A program made the translations under genes and the position numbers. This document shows, in pieces, positions 15,938 to 59,928 of a stretch of 64,000 nucleotides of DNA (positions are counted from its first letter, which is position 1; each line of letters opens with the position of its first letter). The notes beneath the pieces were generated by a model. It was given only the letters and a program-made list of their open reading frames with translations, was not told the origin of the DNA and made no database searches. Source of the stretch: Escherichia coli (GTDB lineage Bacteria; Pseudomonadota; Gammaproteobacteria; Enterobacterales; Enterobacteriaceae). The stretch lies in the NCBI RefSeq assembly GCF_030384885.1, contig NZ_CP128613.1; one strand, 5' to 3'.

Positions 15938-16015
15938 TATCGAATCGTTATTATGTGCAGGTGATTCGGCAGTCTATATCAGTTGTTAAAAATGACAACT
16001 TTTCATTAACTGTTA

Positions 16016-16255
<240 letters not shown>

Positions 16256-23298: not shown

Positions 23299-24278
23299 AT
23301 GCGCAAATATCGTCTAAGTGAAGAACAGCGAGCCTTTAGTTATCAGGATGATGGCACTAAAAAAAGTGTGTTATTATGGCAAATTATCGCCATGAGCGAT
23401 TTTAACGATGTGATAGCAGGAACCGCTGGCGGCTGGATCGATCGCGAAACGGTGTTAGCACAGGAAGGAAATTGCTGGATTTACGACCAGAATGCTATTG
23501 CGTTCGGCGGAACGGTGATTTCCGGTAATACGCGTATCACCGGCACCAGCGTCCTTTGGGGAGAGGTTTACGCAACGGATAACGTCTGGATCGATAATAG
23601 TGAAGTCAGTCAGGGTGCATATATAAGTGACAGTGTCACCATTCGTGACTCATTAGTTTGCGGTCAATGTAGAATATTTGGTCACGCTTAATTGATCAAC
23701 ATTCTATGATCGTCGCCGCGCAAGGCTTAACCTCCGACCATCAACTCCTGCTACAAATTTATGATCGCGCAAGGGTTAGCGCCTCGCGTATTGTCCACCA
23801 GGCACAAATTTATGGCGATGCCGTCGTCCGGTATGCTTTTATTGAACATCGCGCCGAAGTTTTTGATTTTGCCAGTATTGAAGGTAATGAAGAGAACAAC
23901 GTCTGGCTATGCGATTGCGCTAAAGTCTACGGTCACGCGCAGGTGAAAGCTGGCATAGAAGAAGATGCCATTCCGACAATTCATTACAGTTCGCAGGTAG
24001 CGGAATATGCCATTGTGGAAGGTAATTGTGTGTTAAAACATCATGTCTTGATTGGCGGAAAGGCAGTGGTACGTGGCGGACCGATTCTGCTCGACGAACA
24101 CGTTGTAATACAAGGTGAGAGCCGTATTACAGGTGCGGTGATAATTGAAAACCATGTGGAGTTGACCGACCACGCCGTCGTTGAAGCCTTTGATGGCGAC
24201 ACGGTTCATGTCCGTGGTCCAAAAGTCATTAACGGCGAAGAGCTCATTACGCGAACGCCGCTGGCAGGGTTATTGTGA
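23299..24278 (+). pseudogene. ydcK: ydcK, hexapeptide-repeat protein disrupted by a 1-bp frameshift
   Basis: Two adjacent ORFs (23299-23691 frame 1; 23706-24278 frame 3). Frame 1 ends ...CRIFGHA-TAA; frame 3 reads [14 protein letters not shown]... straight through the junction. The sequence gcttaattg would read G H A L I D Q if one more T were present. Combined span 980 nt, one short of a 981-nt (326 aa + stop) gene. Confidence 0.6.
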
Positions 24279-31902: not shown

Positions 31903-31967
31903 CTTCCGATGTAGGCCCGTACTTTTCGCCTGTACCGCGGGTCGGTTTTAGTACAGGCGTTTTCTTT
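31903..31967 (+). ncRNA. rydC: sRNA RydC (Hfq-dependent)
   Basis: cttccgatgtaggcccgtacttttcgcctgtaccgcgggtcggttttagtacaggcgttttcttt matches the remembered ~64-nt RydC, including the cgcctgtac/gtacaggcg terminator stem plus U-run. TATAAT at 31892-31897, about 6 nt upstream, with a TTTTAT-like -35. Confidence 0.65.
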
Positions 31968-32695: not shown

Positions 32696-33697
32696 ATGAG
32701 TAAAGTTGGTATTAACGGTTTTGGTCGTATCGGTCGACTGGTGTTGCGTCGATTACTTGAAGTCAAAAGCAACATAGACATTGTCGCTATTAATGATCTC
32801 ACTTCCCCAAAAATTCTCGCCTACCTGCTGAAACATGATTCAAACTACGGACCGTTCCCCTGGAGCGTTGATTTTACGGAAGATTCACTTATCGTTGATG
32901 GAAAAAGTATCGCGGTTTACGCCGAAAAAGAGGCTAAAAATATTCCATGGAAAGCGAAAGGCGCAGAAATCATTGTCGAATGTACTGGCTTTTATACCTC
33001 CGCCGAGAAATCGCAGGCGCACCTTGATGCTGGTGCGAAGAAGGTGTTGATTTCCGCCCCTGCCGGTGAAATGAAAACCATCGTTTATAACGTCAATGAC
33101 GACACACTGGATGGCAACGACACCATTGTTTCCGTGGCGTCATGCACCACTAACTGTCTTGCACCGATGGCCAAAGCCTTGCACGACAGTTTCGGAATAG
33201 AAGTCGGCACGATGACGACCATTCATGCCTATACTGGCACCCAGTCACTGGTGGATGGCCCGCGAGGTAAAGATCTACGCGCTTCACGTGCAGCGGCAGA
33301 AAATATCATTCCCCACACTACAGGCGCGGCAAAAGCCATTGGTCTGGTGATCCCAGAACTGAGCGGCAAACTGAAAGGTCATGCGCAACGCGTACCCGTG
33401 AAAACAGGTTCGGTGACTGAACTGGTGTCTATTCTTGGAAAAAAAGTGACTGCCGAAGAGGTGAACAACGCGCTTAAAAACGCGACAAACAATAACGAGT
33501 CATTTGGTTATACCGATGAAGAAATAGTCTCTTCTGATATCATTGGCAGCCATTTCGGGTCGGTGTTTGATGCCACGCAAACCGAAATTACCGCCGTGGG
33601 CGATTTACAACTGGTGAAAACGGTCGCCTGGTATGATAACGAATATGGCTTCGTCACGCAGCTTATTCGCACCCTCGAAAAATTCGCTAAACTCTGA
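32696..33697 (+). CDS. gapC: Glyceraldehyde-3-phosphate dehydrogenase GapC, intact 333-aa reading frame
   Basis: N-terminal NAD-binding motif INGFGRIGR and active site SCTTNCLAP; uninterrupted ORF. Confidence 0.9.
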
Positions 33698-41205: not shown

Positions 41206-44269
<3,064 letters not shown>

Positions 44270-44284
44270 TTTCTCTATTTTCCT

Positions 44285-45181
44285 TCAGTAACAGCAGTAG
44301 CGAATAAAATAAAAAAATACCGGAGCGGTGAAAATTAATGAGTCAATCCTGTCAAGGAGTCCGCCATGTCCTGGTAATAGTTTTCCGCTATCTTTAACAC
44401 CAATATCTCGTTTGATGGCTGACATCACTACATCGCCGCAAAAACCACTAATACCAATTAACAAACCCGCTAATAATGCCTGTAATGTATCTAGCGGTGT
44501 CAGCAACGGTCCAATAATCAGTGACGCAATCATGGTGGTGATTACGCCGCCCATCAGACCTTCCAATGTTTTTCCCGGGCTGACTTTAGGGACCACTTTT
44601 CTTCTGCCGCAGGATTTTCCCCATAAATACTGTGCAATATCGTTTGACTCGGTTAATGCCAAAAGAAATAACACCAGTAACGCCCCGCCCTGGATATTTG
44701 TGGTTGGCAACATTAATAACCAGGCGGCATGACTCAAGGCGAAAACGGTCATTATCCAGCCCCAAAAAATGGCGCTCACGGTATGCAGAAAACCGGAGGG
44801 GTCACCCACAAAAACTCGCCAGGTGGCTAATATCAGAAACCCAGCCAAAGGTATAAATAACAGAAACAGCTCAAAGCAATTAAAACCGATAAGCAAATAG
44901 TTAAGAGGAATAACCCAATATAACCAACGCGGAAAATGTACGAATACAAGCGTACAATATTCTTTCAATGCCATAAAACTTATCAGCGCAAAAAACGTCA
45001 ATGTCATCAAGCGTGGACCTGAAATCACTAGTGAAAAACAAATAACGATGCTCCACCAGGTACGAATACGTAATGTAACTTCATCTCCTTTTCTCTCCGG
45101 TAACCGCCATACCAGAAAACGGTTTATCAGCGTTGCTAAAATTAACAACACGAAAAGTATTGCCAGAGATTTTTCCAGCAT
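44285..45181 (-). CDS. ynbB: YnbB, CDP-diglyceride synthase (CdsA)-family membrane protein
   Basis: 298-aa polytopic ORF with a CdsA-like C-terminal signature region (...KRDIGVKDSGKLLPGHGGLLDRIDS...). Confidence 0.82.
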   Translation of the reverse strand: MLEKSLAILFVLLILATLINRFLVWRLPERKGDEVTLRIRTWWSIVICFSLVISGPRLMTLTFFALISFMALKEYCTLVFVHFPRWLYWVIPLNYLLIGFNCFELFLLFIPLAGFLILATWRVFVGDPSGFLHTVSAIFWGWIMTVFALSHAAWLLMLPTTNIQGGALLVLFLLALTESNDIAQYLWGKSCGRRKVVPKVSPGKTLEGLMGGVITTMIASLIIGPLLTPLDTLQALLAGLLIGISGFCGDVVMSAIKRDIGVKDSGKLLPGHGGLLDRIDSLIFTAPVFFYFIRYCCY

Positions 45182-45786
45182 TACTTTTCAGCGCTCATAA
45201 GGAGCACGCTTCGACAACGATTAATCGCAGTCCAGAGAAGCAGAATTGAAGCAATGCTCCATAAAAGATTATTCCATTGCATCCACTGGGGATAAATGGC
45301 AACGGCCAGCCCCCACAAACCAAATATTAACGCACGATCGCTTTTGCCAAATGGACCGGCATAACTGCGAATACCGTTAATCGTCTGCGCGAGTAAACCG
45401 CAAAACTCAGTCAATATGGTGCAAAATAACATGAGTATTACGAGTGATGCGTTACTTTCCGGTAAAAATAAAAACGGTAAATAAAGCGCAATATCGGAAA
45501 TAACATCGCCAGTTTCATTCAAAATCGCCCCCAGACGTGTTTGCTGATTGCACTCACGCGCCATCATGCCATCCAGCGCATTGAGTGCCATACGGACAAA
45601 AAGCACGATGGGCAATAGCAAAAAGAGGATGGGTCGTGCCACCAACATCAACAGCAATCCGATAAGAAGAGAAAGCGCCAGTGCCGCAAGAGTGATGTGA
45701 TTCGCTGTAACGTGGTGCTTATAAAGCCAAAACATCGTCGGCCTTAACAGCGACTGAAAGAGCGGTTTTATCTGGTAGAGCGTCAT
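45181..45786 (-). CDS. ynbA: YnbA, CDP-alcohol phosphatidyltransferase-family membrane protein
   Basis: ORF 45181-45792; CDP-OH phosphatidyltransferase region (ALDGMMARECNQQTRLGAILNETGDVISD); start at MTLYQIKPL gives 201 aa; stop shares 1 nt with the ynbB start. Confidence 0.82.
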   Translation of the reverse strand: MTLYQIKPLFQSLLRPTMFWLYKHHVTANHITLAALALSLLIGLLLMLVARPILFLLLPIVLFVRMALNALDGMMARECNQQTRLGAILNETGDVISDIALYLPFLFLPESNASLVILMLFCTILTEFCGLLAQTINGIRSYAGPFGKSDRALIFGLWGLAVAIYPQWMQWNNLLWSIASILLLWTAINRCRSVLLMSAEK

Positions 45787-49394: not shown

Positions 49395-52300
49395 TTAGAA
49401 CGTTTTCTTGAAGTTCAGCATCACACCTTTATCGCTGATACCATCCTCTTTCCAGTGGTAAGCATCCAGATTCAGCGAGCTCTCTTTGCTGCTGTACTTC
49501 ACGCCGACGCTTGCCAGGCTGTTGATACCGCCGCCCTTTTGCCCATCATCGACATTAAAGTGCTGGCTGCCTGCGCCTGCCAGGCTTGCCGTGCGCTGGC
49601 TCTTCGTGTAGCTCAGGTTTGGCCCACCTTCCAGCGTGGCGTTCGCACTCCAGCCGTCTTTGCCTGCGTAGTCCAGCTTCAGCCCAACGATGCTGTCCAC
49701 CGCCGTTTCGCTGCCGCTGTTCATACTCAGGTTAAAGTCTCCGGCATTACGCTCCTGATAACCGCCTTCCAGCGTGTGACGCAGTTTCACACTCGCATAT
49801 GGCGTGATTTTCAGCCCTTCGCGCGGTTCAAAGGTTTTCGCCCCTTCGCTGCGGAACTCCAGGTACTGCTGTTTCACATTCGTGTCTGCCGTCTTACTGA
49901 TGTCGCCGTAAGCCACCGAACGGCTGCTGTCCAGTTGGTGGATATCGTAACGCAGCGCGTTATTCCAGCTCATACCGTTGTCAAAGGACATCTGATGCTT
50001 CAGGCCAAAGAACTGGCTGTAGCCGCCTGTAACACCGTTATCACCCGCTTTCTGCGCACCGTCGCCGTCCAGACGGGCGATACCGTACTCCAGGCTCATG
50101 GTCTGGTTTTCGCTCAGGTCGAGGGTTTTGCGCAGCGCCAGCATGTCGTACTCGGTATTATTCCCCAGCTCTGCACGCGGATCGCCTTTCGCCACCACGT
50201 TAAATGCCAGACCGTTGCCCATCTTCGGTGCGGCGTCTGCCAGCATACTAAAGCGATTGCTTAACACACGCGCTTCGCGGAATACCGTGGTCGCCTGGCT
50301 ACCGCTAATTTGCTTAAGTGCGCTGTTCAGCTCTGCAGTGGTGCCGACGTTCAGACTGGTATACAGCTCATTGTTGGTGTAACCCGCATCCAGCGCTTTT
50401 GCCACGTCATTCACTGAGGCATCCGTCGCCACATCGGTGTAGGCTTTTTTGCTCATGGTCACGTCAACGTTGCCGCTGGCGTCGGTACTGCCTGTCGCCT
50501 GCCAGACAACAGATGTCGAAGTGATCGCTTGCGCATCGGTCAGGTTGCTGCCTTGCACCACATCATCAAAGCTGACGGTTTTGTCCACCGTTCCCGCCGC
50601 AAAAGCGGTGTTGATCTCCACGCCATTCATACTGGCGTTATTGACCATCAGCTTACCGGCGCTACCGTCGGCGTTCGTCCCCACCACGTAACCATTGAGG
50701 TTGTTCATGCCATCGTTGCGGCTAACGGAAGAAGAATGGCTGCCGTCGTATGGCGTAATGGTGGGTTCTTCCGGCGCGGTAAAGTCGACATAGTGTACTT
50801 CCGTACCGTCTCCCCCTTCGCCACTGCCCTCTATCGGCGTGCCAGATTGTTTAATCAATCCGGAACCATTCACGTTGTCGTCAATATAAACAGTGCCGTT
50901 GTTAACAATATGACCATTGCTCCCGAGCTTGCTGAAGGCGAAGGAGTTATTGGCGTAGATATTAATCGTACCGTTGTTTTCAACCACACCATCCGCTTTG
51001 GCGTCCGATGCTAATTGCATCCCAATCATGCCTGTTTGTGTCGTGCCTTCGCTGCCGACATTGATGGTGCCATTGTTAACCATTTTTGCGCTGCCGTGCG
51101 CATTCATGGCGATGGTATTATTTTTATCAATATTGATAGTGCCATCGTTAATTGCCCGGCTACCGGCGTTATTATTTGACGTCGTAACCTGGCCGTTAAT
51201 CACACCTGTCGTACCGTTATACAATGTATGCCCATTACCGCCGGTAGCGATATCAGCATCCCCATTCACTGTACCCCAGTTGTTGAAATGCCCAGCCCAA
51301 AGTCCGTTATCAAGAAGATCGACAACACCACCGTCCAGGTTATTGAAGGTCGCGTTTTTATCAACCGAACCACTATGAACCGTTCCTGCGTTATTGAATG
51401 TGGCTGCGGCAGAAAAATTCACTTTATTGACCGTTCCACCCGCTTCGTTATTCATCACGGCAGAAGCAGAGGCTCCCTTCCATGCTGTTACCGTCCCGGC
51501 GTTATAAAACGTACTGGCCCATTGTTCAACAGTGTTGATAGTGCCGGAGTTGTTGATAACAGAACCCGCAACGGTTGTACCTACTTGCCCGGTCACTACA
51601 CCTTCGTTAGTAAACACGCCGCCATCCACAGAAACGGTTTTTGTCGTGCCCTGGTTGGTGTATTCCCCACCCGTTGCAATATCAACCTCGTTTATACTGC
51701 CCGTGGTTTCATTGACCAGATGACCAAAGTCAGCCACGGTGACAGGCCCTCCGGTTACGGTACCCGCGTTGGTTACCAGGGTTTCAGCGGTCGCTATCAT
51801 ATCAGTAGAACCACCGGATGAAGACAGGTTAAGCGTCTCCCCCTCGGCCGTAATGATATCGCCGTTTCTCCAGCTTAATGAAACGAACCCATCAGTCGGG
51901 TTATAGGCGTTACTGTCCTGGCATATACCAAAAGTACAGATGGTTCCGTAATTAACGATAGTCCCGCTGCCATCGTTATAGAATGCCTGCCCGTTTTCAG
52001 CATTGATATTGATGATGCCCGTCTGGTCATTAACTGCGGTACCGCCACTATAAACTGCCATACCAACGAGTTTATTCGCCCCCAGGCTGCCATCAAAGTT
52101 CTCATTCTTCTCGAGGTTGATGGTACCCTGATTAACCACCGTATTATCGGTACCGTATGCTGCCATCCCAGCACCTGCATTATAGATAGTGATAGTACCT
52201 GACTGCTGGTTAAGCGCGGTAGCATTTTGCCTTGCGCCACCATAACTGTCCGTTCCTACCGCCATGCCGACACCATAATTTTTTGCATTGCTGCTGCCGA

Positions 52301-54932
52301 TATCGTTGCGTAAGGTGGTGGTATCGTTTTCATCTACCCAGATCGTATCCAGGGTAATCTGGCCTGCATTTGTTACAGTCGAATGATTAATCGCCAGCAT
52401 ACCGACATTACCCCGGCCATACATATCAATAACGCCATTCGCACCATTTAGCGCTGAACCATTATCCTGAGCAGTCATGCCCGTCATACTAACAACGCCA
52501 CTATTAAAAACCGTGGGATCGCTCAATGACAAAGCATTGAACATATTCAAAACGCTATACTGTTCCATCACTTTAGCCGTAATGGTACCGTTATTCACCG
52601 CCGTCCCACCTTCGGAGCTAAAGAAGGCTTTATTACCGGATTCCGGCGATACATCAATTGCGGATGAGTAATCATATTGCTCAAGTAAAACATTACCGTT
52701 ATTCGTTGCAACGGAACCCGTACCCGATATATTGGTAAACCCCATATTCCAGAGCTCAACAAACCCGTTATTGATAACTTGTGACCCTGAACTGACGCTA
52801 AGTATTTCTGATGGGTTATTGCCATAATGCGCGTAAACGTCAATATCCTTCATACTGAAGGTCGCATCCTCCGTGATTTCAAGAAAAGCATTATTGCTTA
52901 CCTGAATAATATTTGCATAGCCCAGCGGAAATTGACCGCTGACTGAGGAGTCTCCTCCCAGATAAACCGACGAATGACCATCAACCTTAATGAGCGGAAT
53001 ATCACCATAGCCCGTACGACTTGCGGCTGGGACTGAACCATCCGTCATAGCCGATGCTTCACCGAAAAGTTGAATACCCCCCCGTAAGGTAACGCTATTT
53101 TCATCCCCTGAAATCACCAACCCACTGATGTTTTCTTGGCTACCATTGACAGTACTATAGGTGTGATGCGCAAGTTCGCTATCAACCTTCAATGTTAACT
53201 GACCATCCAGCGTCAGGTCATTATTGTTACCCGAAACACGAATACCTACGGAAGAATCGAAAAAGTGTTCTGCTGCATTATCAGTCGTCTGATCTTTATC
53301 CACCATAATATTACCGGTAATTTCAACTTCATTGCCATCACCGGCCACATTTACCCCTGTAGCAACACTGCCAGTCACATTAAGCTCATTCGTTGCCAGC
53401 GTCATGGTGTTATTATTTCCAGACACATCCAGACCGGTTGAATAATCCCCAACATCCATACGGCCAGCCAGAGAAATTTCGCCCCCATCTCCAACAACGC
53501 GAATCCCGGTACTGGCATTTCTGGCAGTGATATCCCCCACATTGATAAGAGTAGAATGATTACCCTCAATCAGAATCCCTGTCGCATTGGCCTCTGAACT
53601 ACCATTACTGACGGAAATATCCCCCCTGTTAATGAACGTCGACGCATCACCACTGAGAGAAACACCCAGCGAATTTTCATCCACGACCGTTATATTGCCT
53701 TTGTTGCTGACGATCGCGCCATTACCCTCAACATCAATACCCCGAGCAGCATTGCTAACGTATAAATCCCCTTCCTGTATAACCGTCGCATTATTACCAA
53801 CGATTTTGCTGCCCGTTGAATTTTGCCCATCAACCGTCATATGTCCTTTATTATCGGTCCTGACATCATTACCGATAATAAGGGCCCCTGTTCCACCATT
53901 ATTGACGGTGGAGTCGCCAGTGTTATTTAAGATTGTACGATCGCCATTAACGATAACCGCCGTGCCAGCATCGACCACCGTCTGACCGTTATTATTAATG
54001 GTTATATTATCGCCGGTCAGGATACCGACCACCGAATCTTCACCGACAGCCTCTGTTTTACCCTCGTTTGTCAGCGCAATGTTGTCACCATTAATCATCA
54101 TCACTGTACCGCCATTCAGGGCCGTGTTGCCGCCCTGGTCAGTGATAATTGCATCATTAACGGTAATTATTCTGCCCGTTGTTCCATCAGACACGACGCT
54201 GGCTAACTGTGTGACGTGGAGTTTACCTTCGTCATCATAGCGCCATTCCGTATCACCAGTGGTACTCACTCCACTAAAGATGGCGGTATGAGTCTCTTCA
54301 TGGTTTTCCCACTCAGTCACAATGGTTTTTCGGCCATCTTTTGCCGTCAGCGTGTAGCTACCATCTTCATTTTGGGTATAAGTGAACGTCGCCCCGCGAA
54401 TCTTCAAGGTTTGCGCGTCCTTGTCCCATGTCACATTGTTTTCAAAGACAACGGGTTCTGTTCTCGGGGGGTCAACATCATCATCGCTATTGTCGGGTGG
54501 AGTAACATCACCGCCTTTATCTGGGGGGGTAACATCATCGGCGTTATCTGGCTTTACAGGTATATCTGAATCTTCATCACTGGGAAGGGGTGGCGGTAGA
54601 GAGCCATTATCATCTGGCGGTATGGGCTGGGAAAAAGAAGAGTGAGCAGAATGATCATTGTCATGAGACAATTCAATCACTGCGAGTGTTGCCAGTACCG
54701 CCGTGGCACCTAATGCCAGTAACGAGCTGAAACCATTATTTGTAACAACAGCACATTTTTCTGGCACTGTTTTCAACTTCATTGACGGTCGGGCGTGCCC
54801 TTCTGACTGACATGTCATTTGAGAGCTTCTGCGCATACTGTCTGCACTCTCGCCTTCTGTTATTTCCGCCCCCCAGCTTTGGCCACTTAACGCTATAGCG
54901 ATACACGCTGATAATAACGTTTTCTTTTGCAT
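49395..54932 (-). CDS. ydbA: Autotransporter YdbA, uninterrupted 1845-aa reading frame (beta-helical passenger plus C-terminal beta-barrel translocator)
   Basis: Signal peptide; Pro/Asp-rich N-terminal repeats; long Gly/Asn/Thr-rich degenerate repeats typical of beta-helix passengers; C-terminus ends ...MLNFKKTF (terminal aromatic) as in autotransporter barrels. One continuous ORF, no IS sequences inside. Confidence 0.85.
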   Translation of the reverse strand: MQKKTLLSACIAIALSGQSWGAEITEGESADSMRRSSQMTCQSEGHARPSMKLKTVPEKCAVVTNNGFSSLLALGATAVLATLAVIELSHDNDHSAHSSFSQPIPPDDNGSLPPPLPSDEDSDIPVKPDNADDVTPPDKGGDVTPPDNSDDDVDPPRTEPVVFENNVTWDKDAQTLKIRGATFTYTQNEDGSYTLTAKDGRKTIVTEWENHEETHTAIFSGVSTTGDTEWRYDDEGKLHVTQLASVVSDGTTGRIITVNDAIITDQGGNTALNGGTVMMINGDNIALTNEGKTEAVGEDSVVGILTGDNITINNNGQTVVDAGTAVIVNGDRTILNNTGDSTVNNGGTGALIIGNDVRTDNKGHMTVDGQNSTGSKIVGNNATVIQEGDLYVSNAARGIDVEGNGAIVSNKGNITVVDENSLGVSLSGDASTFINRGDISVSNGSSEANATGILIEGNHSTLINVGDITARNASTGIRVVGDGGEISLAGRMDVGDYSTGLDVSGNNNTMTLATNELNVTGSVATGVNVAGDGNEVEITGNIMVDKDQTTDNAAEHFFDSSVGIRVSGNNNDLTLDGQLTLKVDSELAHHTYSTVNGSQENISGLVISGDENSVTLRGGIQLFGEASAMTDGSVPAASRTGYGDIPLIKVDGHSSVYLGGDSSVSGQFPLGYANIIQVSNNAFLEITEDATFSMKDIDVYAHYGNNPSEILSVSSGSQVINNGFVELWNMGFTNISGTGSVATNNGNVLLEQYDYSSAIDVSPESGNKAFFSSEGGTAVNNGTITAKVMEQYSVLNMFNALSLSDPTVFNSGVVSMTGMTAQDNGSALNGANGVIDMYGRGNVGMLAINHSTVTNAGQITLDTIWVDENDTTTLRNDIGSSNAKNYGVGMAVGTDSYGGARQNATALNQQSGTITIYNAGAGMAAYGTDNTVVNQGTINLEKNENFDGSLGANKLVGMAVYSGGTAVNDQTGIININAENGQAFYNDGSGTIVNYGTICTFGICQDSNAYNPTDGFVSLSWRNGDIITAEGETLNLSSSGGSTDMIATAETLVTNAGTVTGGPVTVADFGHLVNETTGSINEVDIATGGEYTNQGTTKTVSVDGGVFTNEGVVTGQVGTTVAGSVINNSGTINTVEQWASTFYNAGTVTAWKGASASAVMNNEAGGTVNKVNFSAAATFNNAGTVHSGSVDKNATFNNLDGGVVDLLDNGLWAGHFNNWGTVNGDADIATGGNGHTLYNGTTGVINGQVTTSNNNAGSRAINDGTINIDKNNTIAMNAHGSAKMVNNGTINVGSEGTTQTGMIGMQLASDAKADGVVENNGTINIYANNSFAFSKLGSNGHIVNNGTVYIDDNVNGSGLIKQSGTPIEGSGEGGDGTEVHYVDFTAPEEPTITPYDGSHSSSVSRNDGMNNLNGYVVGTNADGSAGKLMVNNASMNGVEINTAFAAGTVDKTVSFDDVVQGSNLTDAQAITSTSVVWQATGSTDASGNVDVTMSKKAYTDVATDASVNDVAKALDAGYTNNELYTSLNVGTTAELNSALKQISGSQATTVFREARVLSNRFSMLADAAPKMGNGLAFNVVAKGDPRAELGNNTEYDMLALRKTLDLSENQTMSLEYGIARLDGDGAQKAGDNGVTGGYSQFFGLKHQMSFDNGMSWNNALRYDIHQLDSSRSVAYGDISKTADTNVKQQYLEFRSEGAKTFEPREGLKITPYASVKLRHTLEGGYQERNAGDFNLSMNSGSETAVDSIVGLKLDYAGKDGWSANATLEGGPNLSYTKSQRTASLAGAGSQHFNVDDGQKGGGINSLASVGVKYSSKESSLNLDAYHWKEDGISDKGVMLNFKKTF

Positions 54933-55578
54933 GAGAAATCCTTTTCAATGAATGACATTTCAAATAATAAAATATGAGTAACAGATAAGAAATAGCCACA
55001 GGCTGTGTCATGATTTAATGTCTGCTCTTGAAATTTTATTTAGCAATCCCAGAACATTCAACTTAATTAGTATTTCGAAACCTCAATGCAGACACATAAA
55101 AAACAAATTATTCGATTACTTAGGCTATTTGTTGCATTAATACACATCCTCTAACAATAATCAGACAAAAAGCAATGTCAGCGTCAAATTGGGTAGCTGA
55201 TTCATATTACTGATCACTCCGTAAATTCATTCATCGTGAAAATATTAACATTTAAACCATGTTCCATTTAATCAACCCACTGAAAATCTGGAGGTTATCT
55301 ACTGCGGTTTGTTGTTGACTGCCCCTGATAGGATTACCAGGCGTTGACAGAAGATGAGGCTTGCAAGATGCTAAAAACAATGTGGTGTTACAAGCAATCC
55401 CATAAACCTCGTAACTTCACTTAAATGAGCGATGCCGTCCATATTTGGGTTGACTATAAAAATCCTTAATATTGAGGTTGATGATGATATTCATGATGGC
55501 GTTGGAAAAATAGGACACCCATAAAATATCTATACAGCCTTTAAATTAAATCATTGAAATATCGCTGTTGCATAGTGC

Positions 55579-55905
55579 TTATTTTTGCAACCATTTTCCG
55601 TTAATTCCCTGCACATATTCCCCCGGTTTGGCCCGAGCTACAAGCTTTTGTCCGGCAAGCTTCGCGATATCATCTACCGATACATTATTTTGCTTTGCCA
55701 GTTGTTGATAACTCACTTTACGTGCGGCATTAATCTCGGTTACTAATTTCTCTGTTTCAGCATCCGTTTTCAACGCAACCAAATAACCATAAAATGTTTC
55801 ACCTACCCGCCCCTGAGTTCTGGCTTCATCCAGAGTCAATGCCATTACATTGCTGCTTACCAGCCCAACAAGAAACGCACAAAGAAGTAATGTTTTCTTC
55901 ATCAT
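55579..55905 (-). CDS. ydbL: YdbL (DUF1318) periplasmic protein
   Basis: ORF 55579-55983; start at MKKTLLLCAFLVGLVSSNVMA gives 108 aa with signal peptide. Confidence 0.82.
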   Translation of the reverse strand: MMKKTLLLCAFLVGLVSSNVMALTLDEARTQGRVGETFYGYLVALKTDAETEKLVTEINAARKVSYQQLAKQNNVSVDDIAKLAGQKLVARAKPGEYVQGINGKWLQK

Positions 55906-55909
55906 CGCC

Positions 55910-56095
55910 TCAGAAAAGATCGCTACGAGTTTCAAGCAGCTCTTCGACATCTTTGTCTGCCTTGATGATGATCTCATGCTCAATTTTAACGTTCATATTG
56001 ATAGTGATCGGTTCCTTAGGTGCAGCGACTTCAATGCGAGGCGTACAGCCAACCAGCATAAAAGATGACGTCAACGCAGCCAGTAAAATTTTCAT
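55910..56095 (-). CDS. ynbE: Small lipoprotein YnbE
   Basis: 61-aa ORF with lipobox (MLVGCT); overlaps the ydbH stop by 4 nt. Confidence 0.82.
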   Translation of the reverse strand: MKILLAALTSSFMLVGCTPRIEVAAPKEPITINMNVKIEHEIIIKADKDVEELLETRSDLF

Positions 56096-58731
56096 TGTTT
56101 TTCCTCACACCTTTTTCCTTGCGGACAGCCATTTTCCGGCAGACGCGCGTTCTGCTCCAACCATGCCTGGAGATTATCGCCAAAGCGTAAACTGCGCCAC
56201 AGGGTAAAAATATTCTCTTCATGATGGTAATTAAGGTTTACCGTACCACTTTTACCGTCGACGCGACTGGTACCTGTAATATTGGCCTGCATGGTTAACA
56301 CACCGAGATTATCTAAATTAATTTTTGTCGATGAACGGCTAATTTCCATATAGCGCAACCAGTTAATCGCAGAACCCGCGGTCATATTGTCTTTCACCAC
56401 CGCATCTGCGGTGTCTTTATCCAGCCGCAAGGTCATTGGTCCGCTATTTGCCAGCCAGCCGTCTTTAACTATCCATTTTTCATTGTTCAGCCATAAAGGC
56501 AATGCCCCACTAAATGCCCCGGACATGGCGAATTGTTTCGGATTGACGGCGCTAACCAGTTCGCTGGATGAGAGATTATTCAGCCGCAACAGCGCCGGGT
56601 CATGTTGCGGCATGCGTAATTGTTTCATCAGCACGTTACCGCCTAACACATCGACGCTAACATCGGTCAACAACAATGGTTCGTCTTCACTCCACGGATA
56701 ACGCCCTTGCAAATCAGCCGTAATATTTTTCGCTGTCACAAGATTAATCACTTCGGCAATTCGCAACGTAACGGGGCCGCGAGTCCCCAGATGCCAGGCT
56801 CCATCGGCAAAACGGAAAGGCAGGACAAAATCGACACCGTTAACCTGATTATCTGGCATCCAGGCACTACCGCCTTTCAACACACCGTGCCCTCCCGCGC
56901 GGAATCCTTGTTCAGGCGCAGCAGAAAATGCGACCTGGGCATACAGTTCGCCATCGCGTAAGTTCATCTTCCAGTCGGGTGGCACCAGCGGCTGGAATAC
57001 GGTCAGTGATTGTTTAGGCCACCAGGCGTTACCGCGCAGACGAATACCGTCCCAGCGACCATTTACCCGAACCGGGCCAATCTCACCAGCATGTAAATCG
57101 CCTTTAAAGAGGAAATACGTCGGATCGCGTCCATCGACGCTAAATTTTAAGGTTGATGGCGGTAACACACTGCCACCCGTGAACAGCGTTTGCCCGGCGT
57201 CCAGTGACAGCGCGCCGCTAAAGGAGGGATGCTGTGCGTCACGTACCCAGACGACGGGCTTGTCGAGAATTAATCGCGGCTTTTCTACCGTCATCGTACC
57301 GTATTGTAACTGGTCGAAACCGGTTGAGAGATCGGTCAGCGTAATCGTGCTGTCATGCCACTCACCTTTTCCTGCGACATCCCAGGTGGCATTCATCGGT
57401 GTAAAACTCCCTTTTCCCCAGTAGCGCCACTGCCAGCGGCCAGCGTCAGGGAGAAAATCATTCGCCAGCCCATCCATATGCAGTACGAAATCGCCCAGTT
57501 CATTTTCATGCGCCTGCAAAATGGCCTGCAAACGCCCGTCAACACCACGTTGGGTGACTTTTACACCCGCTAAAGGCCAGCGGATTTCATCGATGTCCAG
57601 CGAATCGATGACTCTTCCCTTCGAACGTAATAACGCGCCTGGCTCAAAGGCCAGCGTTGGGTCAGTCAGACTTCCGCTTAGCTGCGCAGGTAAACGGGCA
57701 TATAAAATGAGGTCCGCCTGTTTCGCTTCACCGGTCAGTTGCAAAGGCAGCTGGCTGTTATCCATACTTAATTTTCCTGGGCCAAAATTTAGCACCGCGT
57801 TGCCCTTACCCGCTTGCCCCTGGGTCAGCACACTCAGTCGTCCGCTGACCAGAGCGTTCTCAAGCCCTGCCTGCCAGTTGTCGACTTTGACACCCAGTCG
57901 TCCACTCAAAGGAAAACCTGCATACGGCCAGCTCCAGCGACCATCGCTTACGGTCAATTGTTGGCGAGTAATTTGCCACGGCAGATCGAGCAACGGATCG
58001 CCGTTATCCCGTGCCAGCACAATCAATTGCCCGCTATTTTCCTGCCAGTCCAGCTCGGCATCCACCAGTGAAGGCTCCTGCGGCAAGTTTAACGTCGCAG
58101 TAGCATGACCACTTACAGGAAGTCCATCCGGCACTAGCGGCATAGTAAATTCCCCCACCAGTTTAACTGGCGGCTGATTTTCAAACGCGACGACATCCAG
58201 TTCGCTGACTGTAAGTTGTTGCCCTTTCAGCTGGCCTTGAAATTTAACTTTTTCGCCCTGATAACGCAGTTGCTGGATATCGGAGTTTAATGCGAGAGAG
58301 AGTTTTCCCTGCCATTCCTGCCAGGGAGAAAAAATCAGTTTATCGATATTGATCCAGGTGTTAGGCAACATGGCCTGCCACTGCGCGAGGGTTTTTGGAG
58401 CGGCTGGCGATTGCTCCGTCTGCGGCAATTTCGCCAGACAAGCAGAGTCAAGTTCTACCGTGCCGACGTTCAATAACCAGCGGCTGGGATGAGAAAGGCT
58501 GGCGTTTGTGATATGTGCAAGCTGACAATCGCCCACCAGATAACGGAGATCGGGAATGATTAAACCTTTACGCGTAATGCGTGGGCTTTCATCTAATGCA
58601 ATACGTGTCCCGAGCGGTAGCCAGATGCCCGCCAGCGTGGGAACCCACAAGCCGAGCGTCATCAGCAGCGTCAACGGCACAAGAATAATCAGTAATAACA
58701 GCGCGAGAACGGCTTTATATTTACCCAGCAT
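56092..58731 (-). CDS. ydbH: AsmA/TamB-like envelope protein YdbH
   Basis: 879-aa ORF with N-terminal membrane anchor (MLGKYKAVLALLLLIILVPLTLLMTLGLW); AsmA-like family by established knowledge. Confidence 0.88.
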   Translation of the reverse strand: MLGKYKAVLALLLLIILVPLTLLMTLGLWVPTLAGIWLPLGTRIALDESPRITRKGLIIPDLRYLVGDCQLAHITNASLSHPSRWLLNVGTVELDSACLAKLPQTEQSPAAPKTLAQWQAMLPNTWINIDKLIFSPWQEWQGKLSLALNSDIQQLRYQGEKVKFQGQLKGQQLTVSELDVVAFENQPPVKLVGEFTMPLVPDGLPVSGHATATLNLPQEPSLVDAELDWQENSGQLIVLARDNGDPLLDLPWQITRQQLTVSDGRWSWPYAGFPLSGRLGVKVDNWQAGLENALVSGRLSVLTQGQAGKGNAVLNFGPGKLSMDNSQLPLQLTGEAKQADLILYARLPAQLSGSLTDPTLAFEPGALLRSKGRVIDSLDIDEIRWPLAGVKVTQRGVDGRLQAILQAHENELGDFVLHMDGLANDFLPDAGRWQWRYWGKGSFTPMNATWDVAGKGEWHDSTITLTDLSTGFDQLQYGTMTVEKPRLILDKPVVWVRDAQHPSFSGALSLDAGQTLFTGGSVLPPSTLKFSVDGRDPTYFLFKGDLHAGEIGPVRVNGRWDGIRLRGNAWWPKQSLTVFQPLVPPDWKMNLRDGELYAQVAFSAAPEQGFRAGGHGVLKGGSAWMPDNQVNGVDFVLPFRFADGAWHLGTRGPVTLRIAEVINLVTAKNITADLQGRYPWSEDEPLLLTDVSVDVLGGNVLMKQLRMPQHDPALLRLNNLSSSELVSAVNPKQFAMSGAFSGALPLWLNNEKWIVKDGWLANSGPMTLRLDKDTADAVVKDNMTAGSAINWLRYMEISRSSTKINLDNLGVLTMQANITGTSRVDGKSGTVNLNYHHEENIFTLWRSLRFGDNLQAWLEQNARLPENGCPQGKRCEEKQ

Positions 58732-58938
58732 GGGTAGTTAATATCCTGATTTAGCGAAAAATTAAGCATTCAATACGGGTATTGTGGCATGTTTAACCGT
58801 TCAGTTGAAGGTTGCGCCTACACTAAGCATAGTTGTTGATGAATTTTTCAATATCGCCATAGCTTTCAATTATATTTGAAATTTTGTAAAATATTTTTAG
58901 TAGCTTAAATGTGATTCAACATCACTGGAGAAAGTCTT

Positions 58939-59928
58939 ATGAAACTCGCCGTTTATAGCACAAAACAGTACGACAAGAAGTACCTGCAACAGGTGAACGA
59001 GTCCTTTGGCTTTGAGCTGGAATTTTTTGACTTTCTGCTGACGGAAAAAACCGCCAAAACCGCCAATGGCTGCGAAGCGGTATGCATTTTCGTAAACGAT
59101 GACGGCAGCCGCCCGGTGCTGGAAGAACTGAAAAAGCACGGCGTTAAATATATCGCCCTGCGCTGTGCCGGTTTCAATAACGTCGACCTTGACGCAGCAA
59201 AAGAACTGGGGCTGAAAGTAGTCCGTGTTCCAGCCTATGATCCAGAAGCTGTTGCTGAACACGCCATCGGTATGATGATGACGCTGAACCGCCGTATCCA
59301 TCGCGCATATCAGCGTACGCGTGACGCCAACTTCTCTCTGGAAGGTCTGACCGGCTTTACCATGTATGGCAAAACGGCAGGCGTTATCGGTACTGGTAAA
59401 ATCGGTGTGGCGATGCTGCGCATTCTCAAAGGTTTTGGTATGCGTCTGCTGGCGTTCGATCCGTATCCAAGTGCGGCGGCGCTGGAACTCGGTGTGGAGT
59501 ATGTCGATCTGCCAACCCTGTTGTCTGAATCAGACGTTATCTCTCTGCACTGCCCGCTGACACCGGAAAACTACCATCTGTTGAACGAAGCCGCCTTCGA
59601 TCAGATGAAAAATGGCGTGATGATCGTCAATACCAGTCGCGGTGCATTGATTGATTCTCAGGCGGCAATTGAAGCGCTGAAAAATCAGAAAATTGGTTCG
59701 TTGGGTATGGACGTGTATGAAAACGAACGCGATCTGTTCTTTGAAGATAAATCCAACGACGTAATCCAGGATGACGTATTCCGTCGTCTGTCTGCCTGCC
59801 ACAACGTGCTGTTTACCGGGCACCAGGCATTCCTGACAGCAGAAGCTCTGACCAGTATTTCTCAGACTACGCTGCAAAACTTAAGCAATCTGGAAAAAGG
59901 CGAAACCTGCCCGAACGAACTGGTTTAA
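58939..59928 (+). CDS. ldhA: Fermentative D-lactate dehydrogenase (NAD-dependent)
   Basis: 329-aa D-2-hydroxyacid dehydrogenase with NAD-binding GVIGTGKIG; N-terminus MKLAVYSTKQYDKKYLQQVNESFGFELEFFDF. Confidence 0.93.
   Translation: MKLAVYSTKQYDKKYLQQVNESFGFELEFFDFLLTEKTAKTANGCEAVCIFVNDDGSRPVLEELKKHGVKYIALRCAGFNNVDLDAAKELGLKVVRVPAYDPEAVAEHAIGMMMTLNRRIHRAYQRTRDANFSLEGLTGFTMYGKTAGVIGTGKIGVAMLRILKGFGMRLLAFDPYPSAAALELGVEYVDLPTLLSESDVISLHCPLTPENYHLLNEAAFDQMKNGVMIVNTSRGALIDSQAAIEALKNQKIGSLGMDVYENERDLFFEDKSNDVIQDDVFRRLSACHNVLFTGHQAFLTAEALTSISQTTLQNLSNLEKGETCPNELV

Follow-up and report, generated by a model that had tools for sequence, protein, structure and literature searches.

How phospholipids get to the outer membrane in Gram-negative bacteria was long an open question, and the YdbH-YnbE system of Escherichia coli is one of three redundant routes. 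Deleting yhdP, tamB and ydbH together is synthetically lethal, and any single one among YhdP, TamB and YdbH suffices for growth (Ruiz et al. 2021, PMC8593681); PMC11226057 states that the lethality was confirmed independently. Through AlphaFold-Multimer modelling, genetics and in vivo photo-cross-linking in K-12, Kumar et al. 2024 established that YdbH function requires YnbE, that YdbH W791 and W857 contact YnbE, that YnbE multimerises, and that YdbL is dispensable for YdbH-YnbE contact and restrains YnbE multimerisation (PMC11126948). De'Ath et al. 2026 determined the crystal structure of YdbL at 2.12 A (PDB 28oj), demonstrated by nuclear magnetic resonance (NMR) and native mass spectrometry that YdbL binds the C-terminal helix of YnbE, and reported that a yhdP tamB mutant is killed by an excess of YdbL and that free YdbL is degraded by DegP (bioRxiv 10.64898/2026.03.16.712125). 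Here, we describe the ydbH-ynbE-ydbL operon in a window of 64,000 nucleotides from E. coli contig NZ_CP128613.1, the window being the whole stretch of DNA that was analysed, and compare it with these described systems.

TamB resembles YdbH in being a long, inner-membrane-anchored beta-groove protein that needs an outer-membrane partner, and it is redundant with YdbH. The partners differ, since TamA, an Omp85 beta-barrel, and the C-terminus of TamB (1,259 aa) join into a hybrid barrel, whereas YnbE is a 44-residue lipoprotein that would act by strand augmentation. YhdP, an AsmA-like paralogue and proposed phospholipid conduit, is likewise redundant with YdbH; it differs in its length (1,266 aa), in being proposed to span the periplasm alone and in having no dedicated partner genes. 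Contact of lipid with the groove has been reported for both paralogues, YhdP and TamB. As described in the literature, the eukaryotic bridge-like lipid transfer proteins VPS13 and ATG2 likewise have a repeating beta-groove architecture and move lipid in bulk between two membranes, and AsmA-like proteins have been described as their ancestors; however, they are far bigger, function at cytosolic organelle contact sites and use different adaptors. For YdbL, the published authors' own analogy is with curli, where CsgC, also a small periplasmic protein, restrains the premature amyloid-like polymerisation of CsgA. The analogy is drawn on function only, and YdbL binds a helix of YnbE and not the polymerising strand.

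Three minus-strand open reading frames (ORFs) span positions 55579-58731, exactly the limits given by an earlier sequence-only reading of the same window, which had described three translationally coupled genes of 879, 61 and 108 aa. The limits, an ATGA overlap and a gap of 4 to 7 nucleotides bear this description out, and Pfam, NCBIfam and RefSeq agree on the identities ydbH, ynbE and ydbL that it proposed (in NCBIfam, neither YnbE nor YdbL had a passing model). In the essentially identical record of strain 2013C-4282 (NZ_CP027579.1), RefSeq annotates these three genes with ldhA divergent, and the orthologous K-12 genes (b1381-b1383) have the same order, the same ATGA overlap and the same divergent ldhA neighbour. 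We are therefore highly confident that this locus is the E. coli operon encoding the published bridge system. Its features are as follows.

56092..58731, minus strand: ydbH coding sequence, 879 aa with an ATG start; inner-membrane-anchored AsmA-like (repeating beta-groove) protein, from the ORF, PF11739, NF007971, RefSeq and AlphaFold2 (AF2)
58621..58725, minus strand: N-terminal hydrophobic helices of YdbH, residues 3-37, predicted inner-membrane anchor (Kyte-Doolittle; AF2 helices 3-24 and 26-37)
56092..56095, minus strand: ATGA shared by the stop codon of ydbH and the start codon of ynbE, with GAGGAA before it; a translational-coupling signature read from the sequence
55910..56095, minus strand: ynbE coding sequence, 61 aa; outer-membrane lipoprotein predicted to extend the YdbH groove, from the ORF, PF13617 and 100% nucleotide identity to K-12
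56045..56056, minus strand: YnbE lipobox LVGC, residues 14-17, by regular-expression match; Cys17 is the predicted lipidated first mature residue, with Thr at +2
55982..56008, minus strand: YnbE I30-I38 (ITINMNVKI), a strand in which hydrophobic and polar residues alternate, proposed to augment the final YdbH strand
55913..55963, minus strand: YnbE K45-F61, the C-terminal helix bound by YdbL; identical to K-12, interface mapped in the 2026 preprint
55900..55912, minus strand: ynbE-ydbL junction, a TGA stop, an overlapping GAGG and then ATGATG, with candidate ydbL starts at 55905 and 55902
55579..55905, minus strand: ydbL coding sequence, 108 aa when read from the first ATG; DUF1318 protein of the periplasm and chaperone-like modulator of YnbE multimerisation, from the ORF, PF07027 and PDB 28oj
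55840..55905, minus strand: signal peptide of YdbL, spanning residues 1-22 (window numbering), with cleavage predicted at VMA|LT; it has a hydrophobic core, and the crystallised chain aligns from the following Leu-Thr-Leu
58732..58938, no strand assigned: divergent ldhA-ydbH intergenic region, 207 bp; presumed site of the operon promoter, with one base differing from K-12

The ATGA overlap of ydbH and ynbE recurs in K-12 and also in distant relatives (loci L004, L006, L008 and L016). At the second junction, the ydbL ORF is nested in a longer mechanical ORF that begins at an upstream TTG, and the two tandem ATG codons lie 4 and 7 nucleotides after the ynbE stop, giving products of 108 and 107 aa, respectively. 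RefSeq annotates the first ATG as the start in NZ_CP027579.1, and the second is the annotated start in K-12 and in a divergent E. coli haplotype described below. As the second ATG is also better spaced from the GAGG, the true YdbL product is probably 107 aa, a trivial difference. A scan of the 207-bp ldhA-ydbH spacer for sigma-70 consensus elements found no promoter, a terminator scan found none on the minus strand after ydbL, folding of the 150 nucleotides 3' of ydbL (z=0.02) revealed no terminator hairpin, and an Rfam search returned no RNA family within the operon. The ydbH gene also contains plus-strand ORFs (for example 57521-58108, 195 aa); with nothing to support them, they were taken for artefacts, antisense to so long a coding sequence.

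YdbH matches the YdbH-like family PF11739 over residues 14-862 of 879 (E=5.9e-292; 972 bits, cut-off 26.3) and the NCBIfam equivalog NF007971 at 1401 bits (cut-off 824). The full-length profile match goes together with a single N-terminal anchor, a beta-rich domain and a downstream ynbE, so that membership of the family is clear on each count. The anchor was anticipated by the sequence-only reading, and indeed all 19-residue Kyte-Doolittle windows above 1.6 start within residues 1-22, confining hydrophobic stretches to the N-terminus. An AF2 model built on a 37-sequence alignment (24-87% identity) has a mean predicted local distance difference test (pLDDT) score of 86.5 and consists of helices within residues 3-37, about 55 consecutive strands (61% strand) and a C-terminal helix at 841-862. 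Across the 46 strands of at least six residues, hydrophobic and polar residues alternate far beyond expectation (z=5.2; none of 2,000 within-strand shuffles reached the observed value), as needed for a sheet with one hydrophobic face. The secondary structure of the model is a near-continuous meander of strands.

Placement of YdbH in the wider AsmA-like, or repeating beta-groove, group draws on the literature and on this architecture. In hhalign, the 37-sequence YdbH profile gave probabilities of 4.9% against TamB and 0.3% against YhdP, neither significant, in a comparison with a profile on the YdbH side only and single sequences on the other, where profiles on both sides are needed; whole-rod comparison of such long, flexible beta structures is unreliable, and we do not count these results against membership. 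Sub-threshold matches to PF05359 (DUF748), which we take to be a member of the AsmA-like clan, occur in 16 of the 37 YdbH-family members (best E 2.4e-4). YdbH itself has been stated to belong to the AsmA-like clan (PMC8593681).

YnbE matches the YnbE-like lipoprotein family PF13617 (E=3e-16; 59.3 bits, cut-off 25.8) and carries each of the elements expected of it, namely the lipobox, with a Cys17 that is invariant in nine homologues, the alternating strand and a C-terminal helix, which is acidic. Lipoproteins are sorted to the outer membrane when the residue at +2 is not Asp; here it is Thr. In K-12, YnbE was localised in the outer membrane, and prolines introduced into its strand abolish function (PMC11126948). 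Residues I32, N33, V36, H40 and I42, in and just beyond this strand, are invariant across the homologues aligned.

YdbL matches PF07027 (DUF1318; E=3.1e-30, 105 bits, cut-off 27), and its residues 23-108 match chain A of PDB 28oj, 'Probable chaperone-like protein YdbL', across the mature part end to end (E=2.4e-48). Together with the intact signal peptide and the presence of the residues needed for activity, this identifies it as the crystallised protein's counterpart. A match to TIGR00486 (15.9 bits, cut-off 130) was discarded as noise. The heading of the sequence-only reading spoke of lipoprotein partners of YdbH, although its text called the 108-aa protein periplasmic. The term stands for YnbE, with its lipobox, but not for YdbL, which has a cleavable signal peptide.

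Comparison with K-12 and with published mutagenesis suggests that this allele is functional. The ynbE gene is 100% identical to that of K-12 at the nucleotide level. In ydbH, 86 nucleotides differ, mostly synonymously, leaving 11 of 879 residues changed (98.7% protein identity), and these substitutions miss all six experimentally informative residues, T303, G305, G308, G456, W791 and W857; the first four are the sites of the gain-of-function changes T303I, G305W, G308C and G456V isolated by Ruiz et al. (PMC8593681). The ydbL gene is 92% identical, and its product has six substitutions and lacks the last residue, its C-terminus reading WLQK* in place of the WVRKF* of K-12. All 14 residues needed for YdbL activity (L24, R28, E35, Y40, N58, R61, Y65, L68, I79, K86, L87, R90, W104 and K107) are unchanged, as are 15 of the 16 positions mutated in the 2026 preprint. 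The single change among these, E60A, falls on a predicted hydrogen-bond partner of YnbE that displays a large NMR shift, and both E60A and E60D were tested there with no detectable defect (bioRxiv 10.64898/2026.03.16.712125), so the natural allele agrees with published mutagenesis. Given an identical YnbE and tested YdbH and YdbL residues that are unchanged or tolerated, the operon is apparently intact and functional, and we expect from its sequence that it acts as in K-12.

By analogy with K-12, the N-terminal helix of YdbH would anchor it in the inner membrane, and the protein would fold into a long, almost all-beta periplasmic rod with one hydrophobic face. Strand I30-I38 of YnbE would add onto the last YdbH strand by beta-strand augmentation, further YnbE copies would probably be added in the same way, and the addition of YnbE would complete a bridge from the inner to the outer membrane. 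Phospholipids would then glide along it, the groove enclosing their acyl chains, by a route redundant with those of YhdP and TamB. Soluble, periplasmic YdbL would bind the C-terminal helix of YnbE and limit runaway, amyloid-like YnbE multimerisation. The ratio of YdbL to YnbE matters, which fits the tight packing and co-translation of the three genes. The lethality, the YdbH-YnbE cross-links, the requirement for YnbE and its multimerisation, the binding of YdbL to a YnbE peptide and the YdbL crystal structure are established by published experiments in K-12; we infer the passage of lipid through the YdbH groove, its direction and the number of YnbE copies per bridge.

The system is thus already known in detail, and the three checks that the sequence-only reading had proposed are all in the literature. 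The AlphaFold-Multimer model of the complex has been published and supports a YdbH-YnbE bridge (PMC11126948), the synthetic lethality of ydbH with tamB and yhdP has been reported (PMC8593681), and the physical interaction exists as in vivo cross-links between YdbH and YnbE and as YdbL-YnbE peptide binding (PMC11126948, bioRxiv 10.64898/2026.03.16.712125). The same three studies vindicate the link to intermembrane phospholipid transport that was drawn from the sequence.

A further claim, that ydbH is conservedly coupled to two small partners, held for only one of them. We read the neighbourhoods of a small sample of YdbH relatives at 24-49% identity and searched their DNA directly for YnbE- and YdbL-like sequence. 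A ynbE gene lies 3' of ydbH, mostly with a stop/start overlap, in L004, L005, L006, L007, L008/L009, L010 and L013, and in L011 it lies 1.25 kb downstream, past an inserted gene on the opposite strand. Wherever the sampled sequence extended far enough, ynbE was thus present after ydbH, even at a YdbH identity of 24% (the L012 contig ends before the position of ynbE). Within the same sample, ydbL was found only in L013. The 1.5-4 kb of downstream sequence in L006, L008/L009, L010 and L011 lacks it, although those genomes could encode it elsewhere, and L004 ends 46 nucleotides after ynbE. In this small sample, then, the conserved core is the ydbH-ynbE pair, which fits YdbL being non-essential. 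In the alignment of YnbE homologues, the lipidated Cys and the strand motif are invariant, and the C-terminal helix, to which YdbL binds, drifts in lineages without ydbL. The two key papers on the system contain no discussion of how ynbE and ydbL co-occur with ydbH.

A gene of the PF27206 family ('HI_1241') lies directly upstream of ydbH-ynbE in all five sampled Pasteurellaceae-type loci, with a spacing of 0-12 nucleotides or an overlap of one nucleotide. The five genes, each matching PF27206, are located as follows.

L005, 178-990: HI_1241 gene
L007, 167-970: HI_1241 gene
L008, 3177-4001: HI_1241 gene
L016, 5001-5816: HI_1241 gene
L017, 5001-5825: HI_1241 gene

The product is an uncharacterised polytopic membrane protein of about 270 aa with eight or nine predicted helices, and its AF2 model is all-helical (pLDDT 86.9; predicted template modelling score 0.88) with no significant fold match in the PDB. 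All 98 detected homologues carry PF27206, are unnamed or loosely called DMT/EamA-like and, wherever a source is named, come from Pasteurellaceae. HI_1241 goes unmentioned in the literature searched, and no ydbL was found near the HI_1241-ydbH-ynbE loci. The window has ldhA upstream of ydbH, on the other strand, and contains no gene of the HI_1241 kind.

A more novel reading is that only the ydbH-ynbE pair is truly conserved as a system and that accessories are lineage-specific, ydbL in Enterobacteriaceae and some relatives and HI_1241 in Pasteurellaceae. We regard this reading as unlikely. Since every HI_1241 example is from a single family, the adjacency could be due to nothing more than conserved synteny.

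An alternative to the mechanism described above is that the three products form a stable ternary bridge in which YdbL is a structural subunit seated on the YdbH C-terminus, a view close to the dedicated complex with two tiny partners that was proposed from the sequence. AlphaFold-Multimer and MultiFold2 do place YdbL on the C-terminus of YdbH along with YnbE, and both the effects of changes at YdbL W104 and K107 and the drop in YdbH levels in the absence of YdbL could be understood in this way. However, YdbH-YnbE cross-links persist without YdbL, which is not required for function, an excess of YdbL is lethal in a yhdP tamB mutant, and ydbL adjoins ydbH-ynbE in only one of eight distinct sampled loci outside Enterobacteriaceae. 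We consider a ternary bridge quite improbable: of the proposed complex, the YdbH-YnbE bridge is published, but YdbL acts as a modulator and is not an established structural subunit.

YdbH-YnbE could instead be a membrane tether, or a regulator of outer-membrane lipid homeostasis, with lipids taking another route. The literature has not shown direct transport through YdbH, the role of YdbH is minor relative to those of YhdP and TamB, and its modelled length falls short of the width of the periplasm. Set against these points, YhdP, TamB or YdbH alone suffices for growth, the YdbH strands are amphipathic as expected for a groove that shields lipid, the paralogues are reported to contact lipid through theirs, and the gain-of-function set includes G456V, in which the side chain points into the tube. 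A tether or regulator is therefore a very unlikely account. The legacy name 'DctA-YdbH / Dicarboxylate transport', under which some sources still list homologues (P0086, P0096 and P0103), can be given virtually no credence as a function, since a single N-terminal anchor followed by a soluble all-beta rod is not the topology of a polytopic transporter, PF11739 is now described in Pfam as 'Intermembrane phospholipid transport protein YdbH', and the genetic data all point to envelope lipid homeostasis.

We return to the bridge operon itself and its variation within E. coli. The region 55400-58950 is 100% identical to strain 2013C-4282, and no less than 80% of its length is present in 5,409 of 5,426 complete E. 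coli genomes. Across the window (1-64000), this genome differs from NZ_CP027579.1 by only a 1-nt indel and seven substitutions; an apparent large mismatch before position 23,700 was traced by blastn to that indel and a one-base coordinate offset. The 3' end of the operon is a mosaic boundary in E. coli. Here, ydbL and the last ~400 nucleotides of ydbH (window 55579-56500) are rare alleles, most E. coli genomes being 90-95% identical over this stretch, and between these flanks ynbE matches K-12 at 100% identity and nearly all genomes at 95% or more. At the nucleotide level, ynbE is thus under much tighter constraint than the sequence on either side.

A sharply divergent haplotype extends from about nucleotide 2200 of ydbH onward in 375 of 5,414 E. 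coli genomes (~7%), exemplified by positions 3670-6822 of L018 (E. coli OkiPb01695). Within it, ynbE has 81% nucleotide and 90% protein identity, and ydbL 75% nucleotide and 70% protein identity. Almost no intermediates link it to the other genomes, and from its sequence it looks like an imported segment. Mature YnbE carries only two changes in this haplotype, E52D and E55K, both of which lie in the YdbL-binding helix.

In the window, ydbL is joined directly to a ydbA-type gene, followed by pdxI and ydbD (junction at 54933-55578), and feaR-feaB-tynA are absent. K-12 differs in having feaR-feaB-tynA 3' of ydbL, at the place where the window has the intact autotransporter gene. The paa cluster, which we assume to lie beyond feaR-feaB-tynA in K-12, is absent as well. 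This junction between ydbL and the autotransporter gene is common to only 17 of 5,426 complete E. coli genomes, and the difference at the C-terminus of YdbL (WLQK* against WVRKF*) sits right at the breakpoint.

Other features of the window lie outside the operon.

49395-54932, minus strand: intact YdbA-type autotransporter gene (YdbA/BigA type, 1,845 aa, BigA_N and BigA_beta domains), on the strand of ydbL and 646 bp downstream of it
31903-31966, plus strand: RydC small RNA (Rfam RF00505, 80 bits), the only Rfam family in the window at the gathering threshold
41206-45786, minus strand: ynbA-ynbB-ynbC-ynbD cluster (CDP-alcohol phosphatidyltransferase, phosphatidate cytidylyltransferase-like protein, hydrolase/methyltransferase and PAP2 phosphatase)

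The autotransporter gene holds four of the seven substitutions relative to NZ_CP027579.1 (52422, 53079, 53767 and 54781; one in a run of C); ydbA in K-12 is presumably a pseudogene disrupted by an insertion sequence. The ynbA-ynbD cluster resembles a poorly characterised operon for phospholipid metabolism, and its position about 10 kb from the ydbH operon is probably coincidental. By the annotation of NZ_CP027579.1, an intact gene for a type I glyceraldehyde-3-phosphate dehydrogenase ('gap') lies between cybB and aldA (~32696-33697, plus strand), at a site where we take K-12 to have the gapC pseudogene. The same annotation gives a truncated hicB antitoxin pseudogene (~16015-16251, minus strand) with no adjoining hicA called.

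The importance of this system, which is relevant to envelope biology and antibiotic permeability, has already been realised in the literature of 2021-2026, and nothing new comes from finding the operon intact in a further E. coli genome. The additions made here are small: a natural YdbL E60A allele, a linkage to ydbH that is tighter for ynbE than for ydbL across lineages, a recombination-prone 3' boundary of the operon, and the coupling of a membrane protein to ydbH-ynbE in Pasteurellaceae. For AsmA-like proteins, a lipid-loading factor in the inner membrane has been postulated; if HI_1241 is a true partner of ydbH-ynbE, it could be such a factor, loading lipids into the bridge.

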